From positions 96,001-160,000 of the forward strand of contig CAVVOB010000038.1 of the NCBI GenBank assembly GCA_963749655.1: a stretch of 64,000 bases of DNA, written 5' to 3'. Source of the DNA: Nitrospirota bacterium (lineage in GTDB: Bacteria; Nitrospirota; UBA9217). Position 1 is the first letter of the stretch. Each line of letters opens with the position of its first letter. Under the pieces are notes generated by a model that was not told the origin of the DNA, searched no databases, and worked only from the letters and a program-made list of their open reading frames with translations. Shown piece by piece: positions 20,294 through 52,547 of this stretch. Made by a program: the position numbers and the translations under genes.

Positions 20294-21284
20294 TTTTCCC
20301 CTCCTCCTTATGTTCTTTTTCCTTCGTCTCATCTTCCAGGTTTTCCCGATGGCGCAGGGCCGCGTAGATCGTGCCGAACAGGGCCGGCCATGCGGTGAGC
20401 ACGATGGGAACCGCGCCGAGGAACCCTTTTGTTTCCTCGATCAACGGCTTGTTGGGAAGGTTCGTGGGAAGTCCGACCTGATCGAAGGGAACGCCCGATA
20501 TGTACAGCCAGTTCGTTCCACCGACTTCCTTTTCCCCGTAAATGTGGTTGATGTACTTACCGGGGTTGGCTGCAATCTTTTTCCGGGCAAGCTGAAGCAG
20601 GTCCTCACGCTTCCCGAACGTTAGTGCGCCTGTGGGACAGGCTTCTGCGCAGGCCGTGGGCTTGCCTTCCTTGAGCCGCGGCAGGCACATGGTGCATTTC
20701 CGGACCCGCGGCTCCAGTGCGCTCCAGTAGTCATAGGCCGGAATGTAGAAGGGGCAGGCCGTCATGCAGTACCGGCAGCCGAAACACAGGTCCGGATTGT
20801 AGTTGACTGCGCCCTCCGGCGTCTTGGAGTATGCATGGATCGGGCAGGACGTCAGGCAGGCCGGCTCCTTGCAGTGGTTGCACTGGATCTTCCGGTAGAT
20901 CGGCGTCCCTTTGTCCTTGGGATTTTCATAGCGGTTCACCACGGTGTACGCCTTCTCAGTCGGCATCCGATCTTGTTCGAAAACCGAGCTTTCGTCAAAG
21001 GGCTTATCCGGTTCGGGCAGCTTGTTTTCCGCATTGCACGCCTTTTCACAGGAACGGCAGCCCACGCAGGCGGTCAGGTCGGTCAGTACGCCGAAGCTGT
21101 TGGGATATCCCTCGAACTCCGTCGAGGCGAGGGCCTTTCCGGCTTTCCCCAGCAGCATGGTCCCGCCGATCGCGCCGACCGTGCCCAGGAAGATCCGCCT
21201 GTTCATGCCCGGGACGGCTTCTTTCTTTTCTTCCGGTTTTTCATCCGCAGGTGCGTCATTCGGATTTATTGGTTCTCTGGCCAT
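20286..21284 (-). CDS. Tat-exported 4Fe-4S dicluster protein (HmcB/HybA-like)
   Basis: NRRIFL Tat motif, four Cys clusters (CVGCRSC, CNHC..C..CP, CFGCRYC, CTMC..C..CP), IYGEKEVGGT. Confidence 0.9.
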   Translation of the reverse strand: MAREPINPNDAPADEKPEEKKEAVPGMNRRIFLGTVGAIGGTMLLGKAGKALASTEFEGYPNSFGVLTDLTACVGCRSCEKACNAENKLPEPDKPFDESSVFEQDRMPTEKAYTVVNRYENPKDKGTPIYRKIQCNHCKEPACLTSCPIHAYSKTPEGAVNYNPDLCFGCRYCMTACPFYIPAYDYWSALEPRVRKCTMCLPRLKEGKPTACAEACPTGALTFGKREDLLQLARKKIAANPGKYINHIYGEKEVGGTNWLYISGVPFDQVGLPTNLPNKPLIEETKGFLGAVPIVLTAWPALFGTIYAALRHRENLEDETKEKEHKEEGKNG

Positions 21285-21338
21285 AAGAATCCTCCTCTTT
21301 AAGCAGTGTGTTCATTCTTCCGAGAATCAACTGCGGAA

Positions 21339-43140: not shown

Positions 43141-43169
43141 GTTACCTTCCTATTTCTAAAGAAGTTAAC

Positions 43170-44958
43170 GAGTCTGTAGAAAAAGTCGATTTGAAAAGCA
43201 TCATTGATCCCGGGTAGCAAGTTTTTATCAGGGTGAGTTCTTGATTTGAGCTTTTGCGTGATTCAATCGGTCCTGGTCGATCTCGCTACTGCATTTTCTT
43301 TCTCTTTCTGCTTCCCGTTATCTCAACTTTCCGCGAACCCGAACCCGTATCGGTGCACTTTGAGCAGGTTGTGAACCACACAGTATAGCCGCCACTGGGT
43401 GCTTACCTTCTTTTTCCCTCTGAGACTGAAGCGGTCGAGACCGAGACTCGATCGGATGTCAGCAAATACCGGTTCGACCGTCGCCATCCTTCGTCCGTAG
43501 ATCAACTTGCCGGCCACCGAGTCTATCTTCTCTCGCATCTTCTGCGTGAAGGTCTTTTCTTGTTTGTTGGTCCTGCCTGTGAAATGGGAGAACTGGCGCG
43601 TTTCGGTCACCTCGGGGTTCTTCAGGCACTGCGCGCGCTGCGTGCACGGGATACAGTCTCGTTTTGTTCCGTGATACTTGATCGCATGGAGTCCATGATG
43701 ATTCGCGTTGCCGCATTTGTACATCCGTTTCCCGGCCGGGCAGGTGCAGAAGCTTTTATCCGGGCTCACCGTGAAGTCTCTCGGCTGGAAGACGATCGGC
43801 CGGTCGAATTTCTTTGCGATCTCTTTATTGAACCTCTCCTTATGCCTGTCGGCCGTAGCATATCGGGGATCGCGATGACGGAACTTGTTATCCGCGATGT
43901 ATGCGTCGATGCCTTCTTCGATTACCATCTGCACGTTCATTGCGGAATGAAAACCGGCATCGGTCGTCAGTTGGGTCTTTTTGAAGATGTCCTCTTCTTT
44001 TCCGATTGTCTTGAAGTTTCCCCGGGTCCCTTCGACCATGGGTTTAAGTATTGCAGTCTCGGAGTCTCCGGTCGTATCGGCATGGACAACTACCTTGTGT
44101 TTGCTGTCCACCATGGCTACACCGTTGTAACCCTGGACTACTCCGTGCGAAGTCATCATATTCGCGCTTTCGTTGTCGGTTATGTTGCTCTTCCTCGGCC
44201 CCTTGCTGCCGGGCTTGTCGTCGTTATCGTTCATGAAGTCTTTTATCTTTTTGATCTTCGCCTTGAGGGTGGCTATATACTGCTCTTCCTTCTCGATTAC
44301 CGCGTGGTCGGTCTCGGTTTTGTCCCGTTCCTTATGCTGAGCGATCATTGCCTTGATCGCCTTCTCCATCTTTTCTTTTTTACGTCGAAGATCCTTTTTA
44401 GTTCCGCTCCATTCCTTTGAAGCGTTCGAAGGGAGCTTGCAGCCATCGATAGCGAACATCTCTTTGCCGATCAGGCCCATCCGGTCGCAGATAAAGAGTA
44501 CTTCAAGGAAGAGCTTCACCGTCTCCTGGTCGTTCGATGAGATGAAATCGGCGATCGTGGTGAAGTGCGGCCGGGTGTCTGCTGAGAGGGCCATAAACAC
44601 GACGTTCTCGTTGCAGCATTCGGCGATCTTCCGACTGGAGGTGATTCCTTTGGAATAGGCGTAAAGGACGATCTTGAGCATAATCCTTGGATCGTAAGCC
44701 GGTGCGCCAGTTTCGTCGTTCTTATAGCGGAGATCGAAGGCGGAAAGGTCGATTTCATTGTCGATAAGATAGTGGAGCGTATGTTCAAAAGTGCCGGGAA
44801 GGATCTGTTTGTCGAAGCTGAGCGGGATAAATTTGCCTTGGGAATAGTCGTACTCTTTGTACTTCGCCATACGCCTCCCGTGGGTGAGGGGTTTTTGTTC
44901 TTCAGAAGTGCGTTTAGATGGCGCCAGTATAGCATAAAATGACTTTTTCTACACCTTC
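43170..44958 (-). mobile_element. IS1182-family insertion sequence, copy 1 (1,789 bp)
   Basis: Imperfect 18-bp IRs GAGTCTGTAGAAAAAGTC / GACTTTTTCTACACCTTC; AAC on both flanks. Confidence 0.93.
43323..44870 (-). CDS. IS1182-family DDE transposase
   Basis: GAPAYDPRIMLK..YAY..GITSSRKI (DUF772-like), IDG.K, TD.ES, GYN, DAGF, VEPVF, HNL. Confidence 0.92.
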   Translation of the reverse strand: MAKYKEYDYSQGKFIPLSFDKQILPGTFEHTLHYLIDNEIDLSAFDLRYKNDETGAPAYDPRIMLKIVLYAYSKGITSSRKIAECCNENVVFMALSADTRPHFTTIADFISSNDQETVKLFLEVLFICDRMGLIGKEMFAIDGCKLPSNASKEWSGTKKDLRRKKEKMEKAIKAMIAQHKERDKTETDHAVIEKEEQYIATLKAKIKKIKDFMNDNDDKPGSKGPRKSNITDNESANMMTSHGVVQGYNGVAMVDSKHKVVVHADTTGDSETAILKPMVEGTRGNFKTIGKEEDIFKKTQLTTDAGFHSAMNVQMVIEEGIDAYIADNKFRHRDPRYATADRHKERFNKEIAKKFDRPIVFQPRDFTVSPDKSFCTCPAGKRMYKCGNANHHGLHAIKYHGTKRDCIPCTQRAQCLKNPEVTETRQFSHFTGRTNKQEKTFTQKMREKIDSVAGKLIYGRRMATVEPVFADIRSSLGLDRFSLRGKKKVSTQWRLYCVVHNLLKVHRYGFGFAES

Positions 44959-45013
44959 AACACGGCGCTGACGCGCCGACGTTGGCGCGTCGCTGTCGAG
45001 CGCCAGGTTGGTA
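44955..45013 (-). other. attC site regenerated at the IS end
   Basis: TACCAAC ... GTT|GAAG; CT-GAC-GCG/CGC-T-GTC-G-AG stem. Confidence 0.9.
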
Positions 45014-45031
45014 CTTGCATCTCTCTTTTAT

Positions 45032-46012
45032 CTACGCATATCCGGCCCATGCCGAAAGGATTTTCCCTGCTCTCTGCTTGCTGAATCCGCATTCGACTGC
45101 CGTGTCTAGCGTAGTTCTTATATCTGCCTCGCTTGGCTTGAAATTCGGACCAAAAGACCTGCTTACGATTCCCATTGCTTTAATTGTTTCTAGGTCTTCT
45201 GAGAGAAGTGATGCAGCGACTTCGCTTTCTATTATAGTTTTGTGCTTGCCGCCTGACTGTGCAAAAAATGGTATCCGTGCCATCAATGATAAACTACGCG
45301 CTTGTTCAAGTTGTTCAGCACCATCTGGCATTGCGTCGTTCCTAGACTTAATCAATGATGTTTCTAAGGTCTGTAGAATGTCCTGCTCTCGCTCAAGGTT
45401 TCCACCAACTGCGGCGGCTTCTTCAAGCATGTCTTGCGTCTCCTGCAATAGTGATAAAGCGTTAGCCACAGAACTATGCTGACTCATCGCTCGCATTTTA
45501 TCGCTGCAAAAGGATTCGAACTTCTTCTTGTACTGCTTCACGAACACAAGGTCCATTTCCTGTGCATCGAGGATTTCTTGAATTGTAATAATCCTGCGGT
45601 CAGCAGGAAAAAGCAGGTTCCCGTCTCTGCGCTGAAGTTGCCTTTCGTAGCAACCTGGGGCGTCGCTCCATACCTTTTCTTCTTCGGCCCAAGCACGTGA
45701 AAGCCTGTGCGCCGTGTTGACCGGCATATTTTCACCGTATTTTTCGATAAGTTCCTGCATCGTTTGTTCGATATATGCGCGTTCTTCCGGCGACGCGTCT
45801 GCTCGCTTTACACAAATCGAATTTACTGATACAGTTTTTCCTTCGAGGGCACCTTTATCAACAACATCGTGCATTTGTCGAGAAATTTGTTTGCGCTCTT
45901 TTTCTACAAGTATTTTTACATGCTCTGCCTGCTCTTGCGTCAATGTCACGCCGGTATCGCGTTTCGAGAATAGATTGATCGCCGCTTTTATTAAGAAGCT
46001 ACCAATTCCCAT
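45032..46012 (-). CDS. Cassette gene: hypothetical protein
   Basis: 326-aa ORF with RBS GAGGAG, bounded by attC sites. Confidence 0.8.
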   Translation of the reverse strand: MGIGSFLIKAAINLFSKRDTGVTLTQEQAEHVKILVEKERKQISRQMHDVVDKGALEGKTVSVNSICVKRADASPEERAYIEQTMQELIEKYGENMPVNTAHRLSRAWAEEEKVWSDAPGCYERQLQRRDGNLLFPADRRIITIQEILDAQEMDLVFVKQYKKKFESFCSDKMRAMSQHSSVANALSLLQETQDMLEEAAAVGGNLEREQDILQTLETSLIKSRNDAMPDGAEQLEQARSLSLMARIPFFAQSGGKHKTIIESEVAASLLSEDLETIKAMGIVSRSFGPNFKPSEADIRTTLDTAVECGFSKQRAGKILSAWAGYA

Positions 46013-46026
46013 GTCATATCTCCTCA

Positions 46027-46090
46027 GACTAATGCGGCGGTAAGTCGCGGTCCCCGTAGGGGCCCGTCGATCTTGACTGCCTTGATCTCT
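46027..46090 (-). other. attC-like site with non-canonical R boxes (AGAGATC ... ATTAGTC)
   Basis: GT-AAG-TCG-CGG / CCG-T-CGA-T-CTT-G-AC stem with extrahelical G and T and 6-nt spacers. Confidence 0.8.
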
Positions 46091-46165
46091 CCGCGCTTTT
46101 TGCGGAGAAGGCAGTTCCGCGACTTACCGCCGCAATCTTTCCGCGATTGCGAAGCGCGGAGAGAT
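46033..46165 (-). mobile_element. Gene-less 133-bp self-complementary mini-cassette
   Basis: Lies between two attC hairpins; its ends are complementary over 15 bp; no credible ORF. Confidence 0.75.
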
Positions 46166-46217
46166 CGATTGGCATCACTAGCGGCTGTAAGCCGTCCGGT
46201 GGATGCCATGGTTATGC
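46160..46217 (-). other. attC site of the 669-aa cassette; R' reads GATCTCT
   Basis: R'' GCATAAC matches this cassette's start GTTATGT at 6/7; AT-CAC/GTG-G-AT and CGGC/GCCG stems. Confidence 0.8.
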
Positions 46218-46288
46218 AATTAGTTGGCTTCTTTACCAGTTGCAAAGCAATAGATGCCCCCTTGTTTCATAGCAAGCATAGATTTTCT

Positions 46289-48298
46289 TTAAAGTGTCTT
46301 CAGTTTATCAATGACAGTCGGATTTCGGCTAAGTTGCTCAATTGTTTTTTGCACAAATGTATTTAGTATCACGCCGTCGTACTTCCGCTGTTCCGCTTCC
46401 TTAACTTCATGTGCCGCTCTGAGAATTTCACCGGACTTAGCTTTCTTATTGACATGAATCATCCTATCTTGATCCGCTTGCTTCAAAATTTCTGACTGTA
46501 TCTTCCAAATCTCTTTCCAGATATCTGACTTGCTCCATAACGCCTCAAGCGTTTGATCAATTAAGCTCTGGAGTCGTCGATGGGCACGCAATTTCTTCAG
46601 CAACACTACGGGATCGATCGGTTTTGGCTGCGGTAGAGGTGGGAAGGGTGTATTACCTGTACCTGGGATTTGAGGCAACTCCACGGTGATATCTATGAGA
46701 CCCCGTTCGATCAAATCGTGTAAGGCTCTCTCAAGTCTCGCTACCTTAGCAGCATCGAAAGCGTAGATTGTAACGGCCGTTTCGACATAGATTATCGATT
46801 TTCCATAGAAAAAGAACTGACCTTTTGCGACTGTGTTGAATTTATCTACAGATTGAAAATTGAACTCTACTGCTGTATCATTGTCATAGTCAAAAGGGTT
46901 ATTTGTGAATCCATCGAATATTTTCTGACCATCAACAGATAGCGTCGATAAGGTAATATTTTGTGCTGTTGTTTGCCCATGCTTGATTATCACAACGCCC
47001 GATGTTCTAGTTGGGGGGGCGAGATTTCTCTCAACGAATACAGCAAAAATTGGGGATGTAATGTTACCGAGACGGTATGAATAGGTCACTTCAACGTAAG
47101 CCGTGCTTAAGTCGTCATGTCCCCTTCGAACATCAATAGGATTATTTACGATTCTGATCCAACGAAACGGAGCGTCAAGTTGTAGAATTGCGGCTGTTGT
47201 TGGATTCTGGTCTTTAATGAACAGATCAGCATCAGTGATGCCATCATAACCTACTGGTGGACCACCACCTGTCTTATGAACATATGGGTAACAGTCAATA
47301 GCTGGTACTGCATCAACATTAGTCGACCGACAATAGTTATCGTCATCCAGCAATCGCACGGTAACCGTGGAGAGAGCTCGGGGCAGTTTGAGATTGACGG
47401 TGGTACTTCCCGTTCTACTAGAGCACTGTTTGTTGTCTCTGCCCTTGGGAGATAATTCTGACTTAGCCTGACCGGGTCCCTTGTTGTAATTCCAGTTACT
47501 ACCATCAACTTGGACGCAGAAGTAGGGGATGAAACAGCATTGCCAGGAAAAATCCAGATCATAGTCGGCCACGGTTGCTGAACTAATCCCGGTTTGTTCG
47601 CACTTGTTAATTTTCACCAGTGTGCCGTCTTGAAAAGCATAACTTCTGTCCTTGTCGTCGAGAAAGAAGCCATGGTATTCGTCTCCCCTATTGTGTCTAA
47701 GCCGAATATTACTTTGATCACCATTTAAATAGAATGTAAGACATACATCGTCATCATTAAAGTAAATTGGATCATAAATGAAGATAGTTACGTGGGTATC
47801 CGCGCCGCTCGGTGCTCCCTCCCCTTGGATTATTGACCTCTCCTCATATGCATATGCGACAACCCGATGGCTGTCTTCAAGGTGCTTAAGATTGACATCA
47901 TTGGATGACGCAATGAGTGTAAGTGTTACTGGCTTAGATTTATCGAGCAGATCCTTAACGCTTGGCCATTCCTGTTGTGTCATGTGCCCTTGGCTATGCT
48001 TGCGATTCCAATGACCTAAATCTGGACTTTCTTGCCATCGATAGATTTTCCAAAGGGTACTTGCAGGTAAGGAATTTACCTGCGTATCCCATATCTCATT
48101 ATAAAGGGGGTCTCCCTCCGGAGGTTGTGGTATGTTTCTATCGATAGGGATTGCATTATAGAATCTCTGCAGTGCTTTCCAGCACATTCCTCCACAAAAT
48201 CCCATATCTAAGGTGACAGTATCAAAGACAAATGATTTTCTCCAAGAATTACCAAAAGGCCAGCCATGAATTGATGGTCTAAAGTATGTCGTTATCAT
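46289..48298 (-). CDS. Cassette gene: 669-aa protein with a putative N-terminal papain-like Cys-His-Asp domain
   Basis: GFCGGM, SHRVVAY, IFIYDP in the usual order; RBS AGGAGG. Confidence 0.7.
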   Translation of the reverse strand: MITTYFRPSIHGWPFGNSWRKSFVFDTVTLDMGFCGGMCWKALQRFYNAIPIDRNIPQPPEGDPLYNEIWDTQVNSLPASTLWKIYRWQESPDLGHWNRKHSQGHMTQQEWPSVKDLLDKSKPVTLTLIASSNDVNLKHLEDSHRVVAYAYEERSIIQGEGAPSGADTHVTIFIYDPIYFNDDDVCLTFYLNGDQSNIRLRHNRGDEYHGFFLDDKDRSYAFQDGTLVKINKCEQTGISSATVADYDLDFSWQCCFIPYFCVQVDGSNWNYNKGPGQAKSELSPKGRDNKQCSSRTGSTTVNLKLPRALSTVTVRLLDDDNYCRSTNVDAVPAIDCYPYVHKTGGGPPVGYDGITDADLFIKDQNPTTAAILQLDAPFRWIRIVNNPIDVRRGHDDLSTAYVEVTYSYRLGNITSPIFAVFVERNLAPPTRTSGVVIIKHGQTTAQNITLSTLSVDGQKIFDGFTNNPFDYDNDTAVEFNFQSVDKFNTVAKGQFFFYGKSIIYVETAVTIYAFDAAKVARLERALHDLIERGLIDITVELPQIPGTGNTPFPPLPQPKPIDPVVLLKKLRAHRRLQSLIDQTLEALWSKSDIWKEIWKIQSEILKQADQDRMIHVNKKAKSGEILRAAHEVKEAEQRKYDGVILNTFVQKTIEQLSRNPTVIDKLKTL

Positions 48299-48331
48299 TC
48301 TTACCTCCTTTCATATTTGATAATTGTATCT

Positions 48332-48390
48332 ACATAACGCGGGCGTGAGGGGCGCGTCTTTAGCGACCCTCTCGACGCGCTTTGTTAGTA
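48332..48390 (-). other. attC site
   Basis: TACTAAC ... GTTATGT; GT-GAG-GGG-CGC/GCG-A-CCC-T-CTC-G-AC. Confidence 0.88.
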
Positions 48391-48890
48391 GCTGTTGACT
48401 TCTCCGGCTCGCATTTTATTTTGAGCATGGTTGTGGTTTGCTGCAAATTTTCATCCTCGTACTCTATCAAGAAGACGTTCTGATCGTTGTTATCCGGTTT
48501 CTCACGGCTTTCAGAACCCTTCGAATAATATCTGATTGCCAATAACAGCAGCCGCTTTTTGTTGAAATCAACCCAGTATCTGCGGATGTAGTGTATGTAA
48601 CGAGGTGTCTTTCCTGATACATCACCAAAGTTCTGCCAATTCTCGGAATCGGAGGTACACGATACCCATGGATTAGTTATTTGCTTCGAGTAGTAATCCA
48701 AGACGCGTTCGGACGGATAGGAGGCTTCTACTTTAAAGAATAATTCGTTGGCTTTTGCTGTTCCTTCGGATAGCGGAATATGCTGAATGTCTTTTGCTTC
48801 AGGATAAATTGGAAAGGATGCCCAATCGGCACCGAGGACAATAGCAGGCAGTAGCAACATCATTGTCAATGTAAAAACCATGATCCTCAT
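48360..48890 (-). CDS. Cassette gene: secreted hypothetical protein
   Basis: Signal peptide, RBS GGAG; the ORF reads into its attC. Confidence 0.75.
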   Translation of the reverse strand: MRIMVFTLTMMLLLPAIVLGADWASFPIYPEAKDIQHIPLSEGTAKANELFFKVEASYPSERVLDYYSKQITNPWVSCTSDSENWQNFGDVSGKTPRYIHYIRRYWVDFNKKRLLLLAIRYYSKGSESREKPDNNDQNVFLIEYEDENLQQTTTMLKIKCEPEKSTATNKARREGR

Positions 48891-48910
48891 TGTATTTTCT
48901 CCAGACTAAC

Positions 48911-50699
48911 GAGTCTGTAGAAAAAGTCGATTTGAAAAGCATCATTGATCCCGGGTAGCAAGTTTTTATCAGGGTGAGTTCTTGATTTGAGCTTTTGCGT
49001 GATTCAATCGGTCCTGGTCGATCTCGCTACTGCATTTTCTTTCTCTTTCTGCTTCCCGTTATCTCAACTTTCCGCGAACCCGAACCCGTATCGGTGCACT
49101 TTGAGCAGGTTGTGAACCACACAGTATAGCCGCCACTGGGTGCTTACCTTCTTTTTCCCTCTGAGACTGAAGCGGTCGAGACCGAGACTCGATCGGATGT
49201 CAGCAAATACCGGTTCGACCGTCGCCATCCTTCGTCCGTAGATCAACTTGCCGGCCACCGAGTCTATCTTCTCTCGCATCTTCTGCGTGAAGGTCTTTTC
49301 TTGTTTGTTGGTCCTGCCTGTGAAATGGGAGAACTGGCGCGTTTCGGTCACCTCGGGGTTCTTCAGGCACTGCGCGCGCTGCGTGCACGGGATACAGTCT
49401 CGTTTTGTTCCGTGATACTTGATCGCATGGAGTCCATGATGATTCGCGTTGCCGCATTTGTACATCCGTTTCCCGGCCGGGCAGGTGCAGAAGCTTTTAT
49501 CCGGGCTCACCGTGAAGTCTCTCGGCTGGAAGACGATCGGCCGGTCGAATTTCTTTGCGATCTCTTTATTGAACCTCTCCTTATGCCTGTCGGCCGTAGC
49601 ATATCGGGGATCGCGATGACGGAACTTGTTATCCGCGATGTATGCGTCGATGCCTTCTTCGATTACCATCTGCACGTTCATTGCGGAATGAAAACCGGCA
49701 TCGGTCGTCAGTTGGGTCTTTTTGAAGATGTCCTCTTCTTTTCCGATTATCTTGAAGTTTTCCCGGGTCCCTTCGACCATGGGTTTAAGTATTGCAGTCT
49801 CGGAGTCTCCGGTCGCATCGGCATGGACAACTACCTGGTGTTTGCTGTCCACCATGGCTACACCGTTGTAACCCTGGACTACTCCGTGCGAAGTCATCAT
49901 ATTCGCGCTTTCGTTGTCGGTTATGTTGCTCTTCCTCGGCCCCTTGCTGCCGGGCTTGTCGTCGTTATCGTTCATGAAGTCTTTTATCTTTTTGATCTTC
50001 GCCTTGAGGGTGGCTATATACTGCTCTTCCTTCTCGATTACCGCGTGGTCGGTCTCGGTTTTGTCCCGTTCCTTATGCTGAGCGATCATTGCCTTGATCG
50101 CCTTCTCCATCTTTTCTTTCTTACGTCGAAGATCCTTTTTAGTTCCGCTCCATTCCTTTGAAGCGTTCGAAGGGAGCTTGCAGCCGTCGATAGCGAACAT
50201 CTCTTTGCCGATCAGGCCCATCCGGTCGCAGATAAAGAGTACTTCAAGGAAGAGCTTCACCGTCTCCTGGTCGTTCGATGAGATGAAATCGGCGATCGTG
50301 GTGAAGTGCGGCCGGGTGTCGGCGGAGAGGGCCATGAAGATGACATTCTCATTGCAACAGTCGGCGATCTTCCGGCTGGAGGTGATCCCTTTGGAGTAGG
50401 CATACAGGACGATCTTGAGCATGATCCGGGGATCGTAGGCCGGAGCGCCGGTTTCGTCGTTCCTGTACCGGAGGTCGAATGTCGAAAGGTCGAGATCGTT
50501 GTCGATCAGATAGTGGAGGGTGTGCTCGAAGGTGCCGGGGAGGATCTGTTTGTCGAAGCTGAGCGGGATGAACTTGCCTTGGGAATAGTCGTACTCTTTG
50601 TACTTCGCCATACGCCTCCCGTAGGTGAGGGGTTTTGATGTATCAGAAGTGCGTTTCGATGGCGTCAGTATAGCACAAAATGACTTTTCCTACACCTTC
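48911..50699 (-). mobile_element. IS1182-family insertion sequence, copy 2 (1,789 bp)
   Basis: Same IRs; AAC at 48908-48910 and 50700-50702. Confidence 0.93.
49064..50611 (-). CDS. IS1182-family DDE transposase
   Basis: 515 aa, near-identical to copy 1. Confidence 0.92.
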   Translation of the reverse strand: MAKYKEYDYSQGKFIPLSFDKQILPGTFEHTLHYLIDNDLDLSTFDLRYRNDETGAPAYDPRIMLKIVLYAYSKGITSSRKIADCCNENVIFMALSADTRPHFTTIADFISSNDQETVKLFLEVLFICDRMGLIGKEMFAIDGCKLPSNASKEWSGTKKDLRRKKEKMEKAIKAMIAQHKERDKTETDHAVIEKEEQYIATLKAKIKKIKDFMNDNDDKPGSKGPRKSNITDNESANMMTSHGVVQGYNGVAMVDSKHQVVVHADATGDSETAILKPMVEGTRENFKIIGKEEDIFKKTQLTTDAGFHSAMNVQMVIEEGIDAYIADNKFRHRDPRYATADRHKERFNKEIAKKFDRPIVFQPRDFTVSPDKSFCTCPAGKRMYKCGNANHHGLHAIKYHGTKRDCIPCTQRAQCLKNPEVTETRQFSHFTGRTNKQEKTFTQKMREKIDSVAGKLIYGRRMATVEPVFADIRSSLGLDRFSLRGKKKVSTQWRLYCVVHNLLKVHRYGFGFAES

Positions 50700-50702
50700 A
50701 AC

Positions 50703-52491
50703 GAGTCTGTAGAAAAAGTCGATTTGAAAAGCATCATTGATCCCGGGTAGCAAGTTTTTATCAGGGTGAGTTCTTGATTTGAGCTTTTGCGTGATTCAAT
50801 CGGTCCTGGTCGATCTCGCTACTGCATTTTCTTTCTCTTTCTGCTTCCCGTTATCTCAACTTTCCGCGAACCCGAACCCGTATCGGTGCACTTTGAGCAG
50901 GTTGTGAACCACACAGTATAGCCGCCACTGGGTGCTTACCTTCTTTTTCCCTCTGAGACTGAAGCGGTCGAGACCGAGACTCGATCGGATGTCAGCAAAT
51001 ACCGGTTCGACCGTCGCCATCCTTCGTCCGTAGATCAACTTGCCGGCCACCGAGTCTATCTTCTCTCGCATCTTCTGCGTGAAGGTCTTTTCTTGTTTGT
51101 TGGTCCTGCCTGTGAAATGGGAGAACTGGCGCGTTTCGGTCACCTCGGGGTTCTTCAGGCACTGCGCGCGCTGCGTGCACGGGATACAGTCTCGTTTTGT
51201 TCCGTGATACTTGATCGCATGGAGTCCATGATGATTCGCGTTGCCGCATTTGTACATCCGTTTCCCGGCCGGGCAGGTGCAGAAGCTTTTATCCGGGCTC
51301 ACCGTGAAGTCTCTCGGCTGGAAGACGATCGGCCGGTCGAATTTCTTTGCGATCTCTTTATTGAACCTCTCCTTATGCCTGTCGGCCGTAGCATATCGGG
51401 GATCGCGATGACGGAACTTGTTATCCGCGATGTATGCGTCGATGCCTTCTTCGATTACCATCTGCACGTTCATTGCGGAATGAAAACCGGCATCGGTCGT
51501 CAGTTGGGTCTTTTTGAAGATGTCCTCTTCTTTTCCGATTATCTTGAAGTTTTCCCGGGTCCCTTCGACCATGGGTTTAAGTATTGCAGTCTCGGAGTCT
51601 CCGGTCGCATCGGCATGGACAACTACCTGGTGTTTGCTGTCCACCATGGCTACACCGTTGTAACCCTGGACTACTCCGTGCGAAGTCATCATATTCGCGC
51701 TTTCGTTGTCGGTTATGTTGCTCTTCCTCGGCCCCTTGCTGCCGGGCTTGTCGTCGTTATCGTTCATGAAGTCTTTTATCTTTTTGATCTTCGCCTTGAG
51801 GGTGGCTATATACTGCTCTTCCTTCTCGATTACCGCGTGGTCGGTCTCGGTTTTGTCCCGTTCCTTATGCTGAGCGATCATTGCCTTGATCGCCTTCTCC
51901 ATCTTTTCTTTCTTACGTCGAAGATCCTTTTTAGTTCCGCTCCATTCCTTTGAAGCGTTCGAAGGGAGCTTGCAGCCGTCGATAGCGAACATCTCTTTGC
52001 CGATCAGGCCCATCCGGTCGCAGATAAAGAGTACTTCAAGGAAGAGCTTCACCGTCTCCTGGTCGTTCGATGAGATGAAATCGGCGATCGTGGTGAAGTG
52101 CGGCCGGGTGTCGGCGGAGAGGGCCATGAAGATGACATTCTCATTGCAACAGTCGGCGATCTTCCGGCTGGAGGTGATCCCTTTGGAGTAGGCATACAGG
52201 ACGATCTTGAGCATGATCCGGGGATCGTAGGCCGGAGCGCCGGTTTCGTCGTTCCTGTACCGGAGGTCGAATGTCGAAAGGTCGAGATCGTTGTCGATCA
52301 GATAGTGGAGGGTGTGCTCGAAGGTGCCGGGGAGGATCTGTTTGTCGAAGCTGAGCGGGATGAACTTGCCTTGGGAATAGTCGTACTCTTTGTACTTCGC
52401 CATACGCCTCCCGTAGGTGAGGGGTTTTGATGTATCAGAAGTGCGTTTCGATGGCGTCAGTATAGCACAAAATGACTTTTCCTACACCTTC
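50703..52491 (-). mobile_element. IS1182-family insertion sequence, copy 3 (1,789 bp), tandem with copy 2
   Basis: Same IRs; AAC at 50700-50702 and 52492-52494. Confidence 0.9.
50856..52403 (-). CDS. IS1182-family DDE transposase
   Basis: Protein identical to copy 2. Confidence 0.92.
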   Translation of the reverse strand: MAKYKEYDYSQGKFIPLSFDKQILPGTFEHTLHYLIDNDLDLSTFDLRYRNDETGAPAYDPRIMLKIVLYAYSKGITSSRKIADCCNENVIFMALSADTRPHFTTIADFISSNDQETVKLFLEVLFICDRMGLIGKEMFAIDGCKLPSNASKEWSGTKKDLRRKKEKMEKAIKAMIAQHKERDKTETDHAVIEKEEQYIATLKAKIKKIKDFMNDNDDKPGSKGPRKSNITDNESANMMTSHGVVQGYNGVAMVDSKHQVVVHADATGDSETAILKPMVEGTRENFKIIGKEEDIFKKTQLTTDAGFHSAMNVQMVIEEGIDAYIADNKFRHRDPRYATADRHKERFNKEIAKKFDRPIVFQPRDFTVSPDKSFCTCPAGKRMYKCGNANHHGLHAIKYHGTKRDCIPCTQRAQCLKNPEVTETRQFSHFTGRTNKQEKTFTQKMREKIDSVAGKLIYGRRMATVEPVFADIRSSLGLDRFSLRGKKKVSTQWRLYCVVHNLLKVHRYGFGFAES

Positions 52492-52547
52492 AACGCGCGC
52501 CTGACGCGCCGCCGTGTGGCGCGTCGCTGTCGAGGCGCAGGTTGGTT
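52488..52547 (-). other. attC site of the first cassette, regenerated at the IS end
   Basis: AACCAAC ... GTT|GAAG; CT-GAC-GCG/CGC-T-GTC-G-AG. Confidence 0.9.

Follow-up and report, generated by a model that had tools for sequence, protein, structure and literature searches.

An IS1182-family insertion sequence that very probably inserts at, and duplicates, the crossover triplet of attC in Nitrospirota integrons

Mobile elements that settle in the attC sites of integron cassettes have been described before. Insertion sequences (IS) of the IS1111-attC group do so, and are not known to duplicate their target. ISPst6, ISKpn4 and ISPa21 are of this group; the passages on them in PMC11187229 (placement also cited in PMC3971601) give them a fixed place and one orientation in attC, and a DEDD transposase that is guided by a seeker RNA. 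The element studied here is a 1,789-bp IS, of which three copies are found in a 64,000-nucleotide (nt) stretch of a Nitrospirota bacterium (lineage UBA9217, assembly GCA_963749655.1, contig CAVVOB010000038.1, positions 96,001 to 160,000). This whole stretch is called the window, and positions in it are written with a w. The element very probably makes targeted insertions at the R' triplet of attC and duplicates this triplet.

The likeness to the IS1111-attC group is that of an IS with a fixed place and a single orientation in attC. The enzyme of that group, as those passages describe it, is of the DEDD type, however, whereas here only DDE models of the IS1182/IS5 type match, and the crossover triplet appears duplicated. 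The element behaves as elements that home to attC do, while falling outside the IS1111-attC group.

Group IIC-attC and IIB introns are retroelements that home to attC in cassette arrays (PMC3001079, PMC7923331). These introns work with a ribozyme and a reverse transcriptase, whereas the element here has no such Pfam domain and no such Rfam match. Rfam matched nothing in the window, and nothing at four of the metagenome loci.

IS1272 and TnSha1 of staphylococci belong to the IS1182 family itself. The passages on them in PMC5678879 and PMC4923244 describe stem-loop targets, no sequence specificity and insertion in both orientations, and, for IS1272, no duplication and a hairpin that is partly or wholly removed. 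The transposase family and the stem-loop targets are shared with IS1272. The element here differs in its exact position, single orientation, 3-bp duplication and preserved hairpin, and in the conserved bases YGTT and T(G/C)A.

Elements of the IS1202 family (relatives of ISAjo2) are reported, in the relevant part of PMC10132070, to insert in one orientation at 5 bp from pdif/dif sites. The likeness is that insertion is oriented and keeps a constant spacing to the site where a tyrosine recombinase binds. This is however another IS family, with the XerC/D dif site as its landmark and an offset of 5 bp, whereas the element here sits on the crossover bases themselves. Full-text literature searches, which left out ISfinder, the founding IS1111-attC papers and supplements, found no published description of IS1182-family elements targeting attC.

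The copies in the window were delimited by extending identities base by base, and all three are direct repeats of each other (Table 1). A first-pass annotation, made from the letters alone, had described three AAC-flanked copies of this length in the same orientation, and all were found where it placed them. Copies 2 and 3 agree over 1,796 bases, with one single AAC as spacer. The 18-bp terminal inverted repeats of copy 1 are imperfect, with 15 of the 18 positions matching. Each copy contains an intact open reading frame (ORF) of 515 amino acids (aa) on the minus strand, which is also the strand of the cassette ORFs. The transposase of copy 1 is 98.06% identical in aa to those of copies 2 and 3.

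That this is an IS1182-family element had also been proposed in the first pass, and the protein models bear it out. NCBIfam NF033551, the IS1182 equivalog, aligns to residues 11-507 with 278.2 bits, for a cut-off of 270. Pfam matches are to DDE_Tnp_1_6 (PF13751, 3.7e-23), DUF772 (PF05598, 1.6e-16) and DDE_Tnp_1 (PF01609, 1.8e-10). By these domain-level matches, the element is an IS1182-family insertion sequence with a predicted DDE-type transposase. IS1182 elements end in terminal inverted repeats, measure about 1.3-1.95 kb and are flanked by direct repeats of anything from 0 to 60 bp (ISfinder/TnPedia), and the element here, with 1,789 bp, 18-bp ends and a 3-bp duplication, is within these ranges. 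The IS is probably active or recently active. The transposase has at least 7,999 homologous proteins at E<=1e-40, and the best 120 of these all bear generic names only.

Throughout the array in the window, GC-rich repeats of around 55 nt separate short unannotated ORFs on the minus strand. For an alignment of 21 such repeats from the genome, RNAalifold gave 18 base pairs, eight of which have compensatory changes. The feet of the stem read AAC and GTT without exception in these 21 attC sites, and the bulges are all on the 3' arm. Given that the unpaired bulges are on the 3' arm of the plus strand, this strand is the attC bottom strand. The AAC end is R', because of the bulge strand, the direction of the cassette ORFs and the position of the integron integrase gene, intI. 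The AAC at the IS junctions takes up positions 5-7 of the attC model and pairs with the terminal GTT. The earlier reading of this AAC as the GTT core of R' is upheld by all of these points.

The attC covariance model itself was self-built from the 21 attC sites of this genome, and is specific to one attC family. Other attC types are missed by it, which means that an absent match does not make a location a non-attC site. A search of the 4.27 Mb genome gave 38 matches at E<=1, and 33 at E<1e-3. Most are in two arrays, on contigs C38 and C29 (C numbers denote contigs of the same genome), and each array adjoins an integron integrase gene.

Both targets in the window align in one attC family, as the first pass had it, with cassette ORFs just upstream of each attC on the minus strand. 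The attC matches beside the IS are full length. This agrees with the earlier statements that the attC hairpin stays whole, and that the crossover triplet of attC is regenerated by the insertion. On the cassette strand the IS end reads GTT followed by GAAGG, where GTT followed by GAAG had been noted.

All copies in the genome were mapped using BLASTN, TBLASTN and a search for the core of the inverted repeats. There are nine insertion loci, containing six full IS copies, one IS fragment, four miniature inverted-repeat transposable elements (MITEs) and one MITE remnant. The MITEs are 217 bp long, have the same ends as the IS and contain no ORF; they too are flanked by AAC and adjoin attC. Eight of the nine loci are at the R' triplet of an attC, in a single orientation. 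AAC is present on both sides wherever both ends are there, and the transposase-proximal end is always the one that points toward attC.

Six loci adjoin attC model matches with E<1e-3, and one adjoins a truncated attC (E 0.4). The attC at C29:22339 is of a second type, with E 0.0041 in a small search only; its AAC..GTT hairpin has a z of -3.2, and 0 out of 200 shuffles were as good. Conversely, six of the 33 model matches at E<1e-3 are occupied by an IS or MITE at the exact R' position. Because there are only 33 such matches genome-wide and six of these are occupied exactly, the placement at attC is not chance. No locus out of the nine is at a terminator-like site.

The one insertion outside attC, on contig C28, interrupts an open frame of 606/607 aa. 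Its target, AAC-GCGGCGC-TGA, is identical over all 13 bases to the R'-L' arm found in several attC sites. The site itself has no attC model match at E<=10 and no hairpin (z +0.45, 132 of 200 shuffles fold as well). The interrupted ORF has an internal repeat: residues 93-248 of a 300-aa query from the upstream part are 55% identical to the part that follows the IS.

Contig C29 also contains a remnant. At C29:32792-32826, directly beside the IS copy of 86% identity, 32 bp of the distal end of a MITE are found between AAC triplets. The break is at an internal AAC-GCGCCAG of the MITE, a sequence resembling the target motif, which points to an insertion within the MITE and a later deletion.

Outside of the source genome, a close homologue is present in 9 of 60 related genomes. 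All nine belong to the 36 that share its family; the 24 from other families have none. A scan using one genome per species gave 14 loci (scanned loci have L numbers), all in Nitrospirota/Nitrospirae/Thermodesulfovibrionia metagenome-assembled genomes (MAGs). GTT is found at 13 of the 14 proximal ends, and 12 have an adjoining attC model match. At the distal ends this is 7 out of 9, the other two being TTT (L041) and GCT (L045).

A metagenome scan delivered 73 further loci, at 42-96% aa identity. Some of these are an identical contig filed twice, and counts of distinct flanks therefore drop identical flanks. Among the assessable ends, GTT is found at 57 of 59 proximal ones (L083 has ATT, L090 has TTT) and at 43 of 45 distal ones (L090 has TTT, L122 has ATT). 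Twenty-eight of the 59 proximal ends adjoin an attC model match with E<1e-3, and the relative strand is the same in every case. The relatives that share the junction behaviour, in Nitrospirota MAGs and on metagenome contigs, have 58-96% aa identity.

Flanks were scanned twice. The first scan had 71 distinct flanks, of which three are the end of another IS, and 66 of the remaining 68 end on GTT. In the second, stricter scan this is the case for 61 of 62 distinct non-IS flanks. The distal GTT is mostly followed by A, and then by purines/pyrimidines in the pattern of a cassette start (for example GTTAGCC or GTTATGC). This pattern is also seen in a clade of 64-66% identity, whose attC types escape the self-built model. 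The attC targeting proposed in the first pass thus holds up when all copies and homologues are mapped, with eight of nine loci in the genome and a large majority of the 14 MAG and 73 metagenome loci.

Flanks without a model match were also put through a hairpin test. Clear hairpins were found for some (L083, L114, L110 and L124), and none for others. This test is noisy and to be used as a rough guide: it picks distant AAC partners, and could miss an attC with a degenerate R''.

Locus L090 is informative on the nature of the triplet. The IS is found there inside a 210-aa open frame that runs through both flanks, with TTT on both sides. As the two triplets co-vary in L090, they stem from target duplication and are not bases carried by the element. 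The flanking triplet would then be a true 3-bp target duplication, which is what the first pass had claimed for the crossover triplet.

The same triplet recurs in tandem stacks. There are six tandem junctions, each with a spacer of exactly 3 bp: three IS-IS (the window, L081 and L093), two IS-MITE (L046 and L073) and one MITE-MITE (C14). The suggestion that the site stays reusable fits these stacks, which always have the 3-bp spacer.

Comparisons with other populations gave the following. The best public runs contain at most 0.23 of the sampled words, and the four that were aligned match only the IS and attC (90-99% likeness), with nothing over the flanks at w42400-43148 and past w45289; the records are contigs, and as such uninformative on absence. 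For the cassettes beside copy 1, 60 family genomes gave attC-sized matches only (in 46 and 50 of the 60). For the interrupted gene on C28, the 14 genus genomes have only a 48%-identical relative, which makes a single-base comparison impossible.

One public contig of 1,950 nt, matched against w43165-44964, reads from the right end of the IS through some 61 other letters to the left end of the IS, and from there onward through the element. This might reflect a tandem or circle-like junction carried by a different population, or else a loop in the assembly.

A number of observations weigh against targeted insertion with duplication, and the integron role proposed below. No empty-site allele was found in the comparisons above, so the duplication is derived from unoccupied attC sites with a single AAC and from L090. 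Four loci have ends that break the rule: L083 (proximal ATT), L122 (distal ATT), L041 (TTT) and L045 (distal GCT). Around ten flanks have no attC in the hairpin test, many of them from the clade of 64-66% identity, and the attC model is specific to one family. The intI of the window is split over two frames, and that of C29 has an internal stop.

The 62 distinct flanks of the stricter scan also bear on what the transposase recognises. Counting from the IS, 61 of them have GTT at positions -1 to -3, and 61 have a pyrimidine (C or T) at -4. Seven bases upstream, T(G/C)A is found in 44 flanks, and 13 more have T(G/C/T)A eight bases upstream. Targeting is not absolute: two insertions, C28 and L090, are inside genes, at sequences that resemble an attC arm. 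Both have the arm motif, and neither has a hairpin. The evidence leans towards the sequence of one attC arm, rather than the fold, as the cue. To be set against this are the four flanks of 62 where the T(G/C)A motif is missing, and the fact that the targets are mostly related attC sites, which means T(G/C)A-N7-GTT could reflect attC conservation and not reading by the transposase. The case for sequence reading rests mainly on the two in-gene insertions and a few non-folding flanks.

It is possible, if rather doubtful, that the cue is instead the fold of attC, be it a cruciform or a hairpin of the single-stranded bottom strand, with joining at the foot of the stem, as has been proposed for IS1182 members that seek hairpins, and the in-gene insertions as rare accidents. 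Nearly all sites are hairpins with the insertion point at the stem foot, and the target families (type 1, type 2 and the Pseudoalteromonas type) are unlike in sequence but alike in fold. IS1272, from the same family, is likewise described in the relevant passages as targeting hairpins without a sequence consensus (PMC5678879, PMC4923244). A fold would however not explain why only one orientation is used on a nearly symmetrical hairpin, or why the R'' foot never is. It also has to deal with the two insertions in coding sequence, which have the arm motif without a hairpin, and with T(G/C)A and YGTT positions that are conserved across attC types. An even broader idea is that of a general seeker of hairpins or terminators like IS1272, to which attC would merely be the commonest strong hairpin in these genomes. 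A preference for hairpins is known in the IS1182 family, and attC sites of this kind are widespread in this bacterial family, as the attC-only matches in 46 and 50 of the 60 genomes attest. But IS1272, in the passages on it, removes some of the hairpin, leaves no duplication and has no fixed orientation, whereas here the hairpin is intact and insertion is base-exact, with a 3-bp duplication and a fixed orientation. With also just 33 attC model matches in 4.27 Mb, and none of the nine loci terminator-like, a general hairpin seeker is very improbable.

Two further ideas on the target were considered. The tip of the IS (GAAC/GAAG after GTT) could mimic the RRRY of the R' box; this fits, but both IS ends begin with GA(A/G), so it is possibly a coincidence. 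A resemblance of the target (AAC-N7-T..) to the IS's own end was dropped, since only around three positions agree.

In the mechanism proposed here, the DDE transposase would make a 3-bp staggered cut at the R' triplet. It would find this site by reading the R'-to-L' arm, which on the cassette strand is 5'-T(G/C)A-N7-(Y)GTT-3', and would not need the whole folded hairpin. At the occupied sites, the attC hairpin with one GTT is intact on one side, and the second GTT is at the start of the next cassette. With every recognised base on the side of attC, and the triplet copied, insertion would rebuild the target. A rebuilt target in turn allows repeat insertions at the same place, which would give stacks with 3-bp spacers.

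The IS is in sense orientation, around 0.5 kb downstream of a candidate cassette promoter, and read-through transcription of the IS from this promoter is plausible. Since the IS is located between an intact attC and the next cassette, the integron integrase (IntI) should carry it along when it excises or reinserts the downstream cassette. That IntI in this way mobilises the IS as the 5' passenger of that cassette, an idea of the first pass, is put forward tentatively.

Circumstantial support for carriage by IntI comes only from four metagenome loci. In these, an element of 115-145 nt is found some 25 nt after the IS (L086:1968-2115, L095:2159-2300, L096:2166-2310 and L100:2170-2310). Its long-range pairing covaries among the four loci, the sequences beyond it differ, and it has no Rfam match. 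It ends on (G/A)TT and then a purine-rich stretch, like a large attC. The IS plus this attC-like element would be a cassette-like unit.

If IntI can move the IS, it might also have been IntI, and not the transposase, that placed the copies, with the IS moving as or within a cassette to GTT sites, including secondary GTT sites in the genome. The flanking triplet is indeed the IntI crossover triplet, the four loci just described look like cassettes, and IntI is reported to insert cassettes at genomic non-att sites (bioRxiv 10.1101/2022.09.11.507474, in the part dealing with this). Yet the IS in the window has no attC of its own, and there is none between the tandem copies, while the downstream cassette is different at every locus. 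MITEs with the same inverted repeats behave alike. The C28 gene holds the IS alone, with the attC-like bases on the wrong side for a cassette inserted by IntI, the L090 triplet is TTT, and both integrase genes of the genome look broken. Placement by IntI is accordingly given hardly any weight. Somewhat more credible, though still improbable, is that the tandem pair in the window is an IS dimer with ends 3 bp apart, a transposition intermediate or replication product, and not the result of a second insertion. In several IS families, tandem dimers in which a short spacer separates the copies are known intermediates. The pair in the window agrees in all of 1,796 bases, and the 1,950-nt public contig also reads from one IS end to the other. 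A dimer of a single element cannot account for the mixed stacks, IS-MITE at L046 and L073 and two diverged MITEs on C14, whose spacer is likewise 3 bp. Repeated insertion at a rebuilt target, as proposed above, is retained as the explanation of the stacks.

More distant relatives also touch on integrons. Among annotated replicons, the best match came from Pseudoalteromonas piscicida, where a 1.3-Mb replicon carries an element of 40% identity (L143, 758395-764919; further loci L148 and L150), with partial copies nearby. The element has GTT on both sides, and the roughly 95 nt upstream of it fold from AAC to GTT, like an attC. A similar inverted repeat is present 1 kb further along. The same record has two intact integron integrases, with a partial IS copy at 8 kb from one of these. 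At the distal ends in two Pseudoalteromonas records, GTTA comes next in all four cases examined. On a Catenovulum adriaticum plasmid (L145), a related transposase has a GTT junction and is about 750 bp from a gene whose annotation is group II intron maturase domain protein.

Taken in its widest form, the proposal is of a widespread clade of IS1182-family DDE elements that hitch-hikes on integrons in Nitrospirota, in Pseudoalteromonas and, going by the name of the record, in at least one Dehalococcoidia MAG. Such elements would read one attC arm, cut and duplicate the IntI triplet, and rebuild attC, the cassette boundary and their own target. Their copies could pile up, with transcription driven by the cassette promoter, and IntI would take them between arrays and hosts as cassette passengers. 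In some lineages the IS would even stand directly before an attC of its own, making it a true 'IS cassette'. This wide form is speculative.

Coordinates of the copies, triplets, attC sites and integron features are given in Table 1. The intI of the window is distributed over two ORFs. The one at w53115-54275 covers TIGR02249 profile positions 2-188, and has about 165 additional N-terminal residues. The rest of the catalytic domain is in the ORF at w54167-54553. The overlap of the two frames contains a run of five T, and the split stems from a frameshift or from an error in sequencing. A second integrase gene, C29:9153-9992, scores 317.9 bits against TIGR02249 and has one internal stop (TAA). 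The broken look of the two integrase genes may reflect true pseudogenes, or faults of the assembly.

Between the first cassette and intI there are overlapping divergent promoter matches. The match on the minus strand, from w53012 to 52983, agrees at 11 of 12 positions and faces the cassettes and the IS. The one on the plus strand, w53027-53055, agrees at 12 of 12 and faces intI. A long, near-perfect inverted repeat at w52905-52960 separates the first cassette from these promoters. The repeat and the promoter region could be an operator or attI region.

Table 1 Positions of the IS copies, MITEs, flanking triplets, attC sites and integron features in the window (w) and on the contigs (C) of the same genome.
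Feature	Position	Strand	Remarks
IS copy 1	w43170-44958	-	97% identical to copies 2 and 3
IS copy 2	w48911-50699	-	tandem with copy 3
IS copy 3	w50703-52491	-	identical to copy 2
AAC, left triplet of copy 1	w43167-43169		target-duplication half (putative), start of downstream cassette
AAC, right triplet of copy 1	w44959-44961		R' triplet of adjoining attC
AAC left of copy 2	w48908-48910		flanking triplet
AAC shared by tandem copies 2 and 3	w50700-50702		single triplet
AAC right of copy 3	w52492-52494		R' triplet of adjoining attC
Transposase-distal inverted repeat, copy 1	w43170-43187		from comparison of the ends
Transposase-proximal inverted repeat, copy 1	w44941-44958		from comparison of the ends
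Transposase gene, copy 1	w43323-44870	-	515 aa, IS1182 family
Transposase gene, copy 2	w49064-50611	-	ORF
Transposase gene, copy 3	w50856-52403	-	ORF
attC beside copy 1 (cassette ORF w45032-46012)	w44959-45013	+ (bottom strand)	C38:140955-141013, 75.0 bits, model 1-60
attC beside copy 3 (first cassette, ORF w52572-52877)	w52492-52547	+ (bottom strand)	C38:148488-148547, 78.0 bits, full-length match
Unoccupied attC, same family, single AAC	w42273-42332	+	78.3 bits
Unoccupied attC, far end of array, R' triplet ATC not AAC	w41204-41262	+	53.5 bits
Integron integrase gene, two frames	w53115-54553	+	TIGR02249, C38:149610-150547 (split)
Divergent sigma-70-like promoter matches	w52983-53055	both	consensus match only
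IS copy	C29:22339-24127		adjoins attC of second sequence type
IS copy	C29:31003-32791		86% identity
IS copy (L018)	C28:190018-191807		inside gene, only non-attC insertion of the genome
IS end fragment, 134 bp	C30:121261-121394		degraded locus, C30:121231-121394; adjoining attC without left half
Two MITEs, tandem	C14:~216407-216843		single AAC between; one diverged
MITE	C29:~21095-21311		IS inverted repeats, AAC flanks, adjoins attC
MITE	C30:~120050-120266		IS inverted repeats, AAC flanks, adjoins attC

A DDE transposase acting on the crossover triplet would constitute a third, mechanistically distinct class of attC-homing element, beside the RNA-guided DEDD elements and the group II introns. 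It would also be a protein-only system in which a DDE enzyme makes a base-exact and oriented choice of target on a short motif. The lineage is common in environmental data, yet has only generic names among its best 120 homologues. The junction signature could be used in annotation pipelines for integrons and for IS.

For the integrons themselves, an attC that is left intact means that cassette exchange may not be blocked. Cassettes do become separated by an extra 1.8 kb, which probably brings in promoters or terminators. The IS copies also supply homology for rearrangements that split arrays. IntI, finally, may spread the element.

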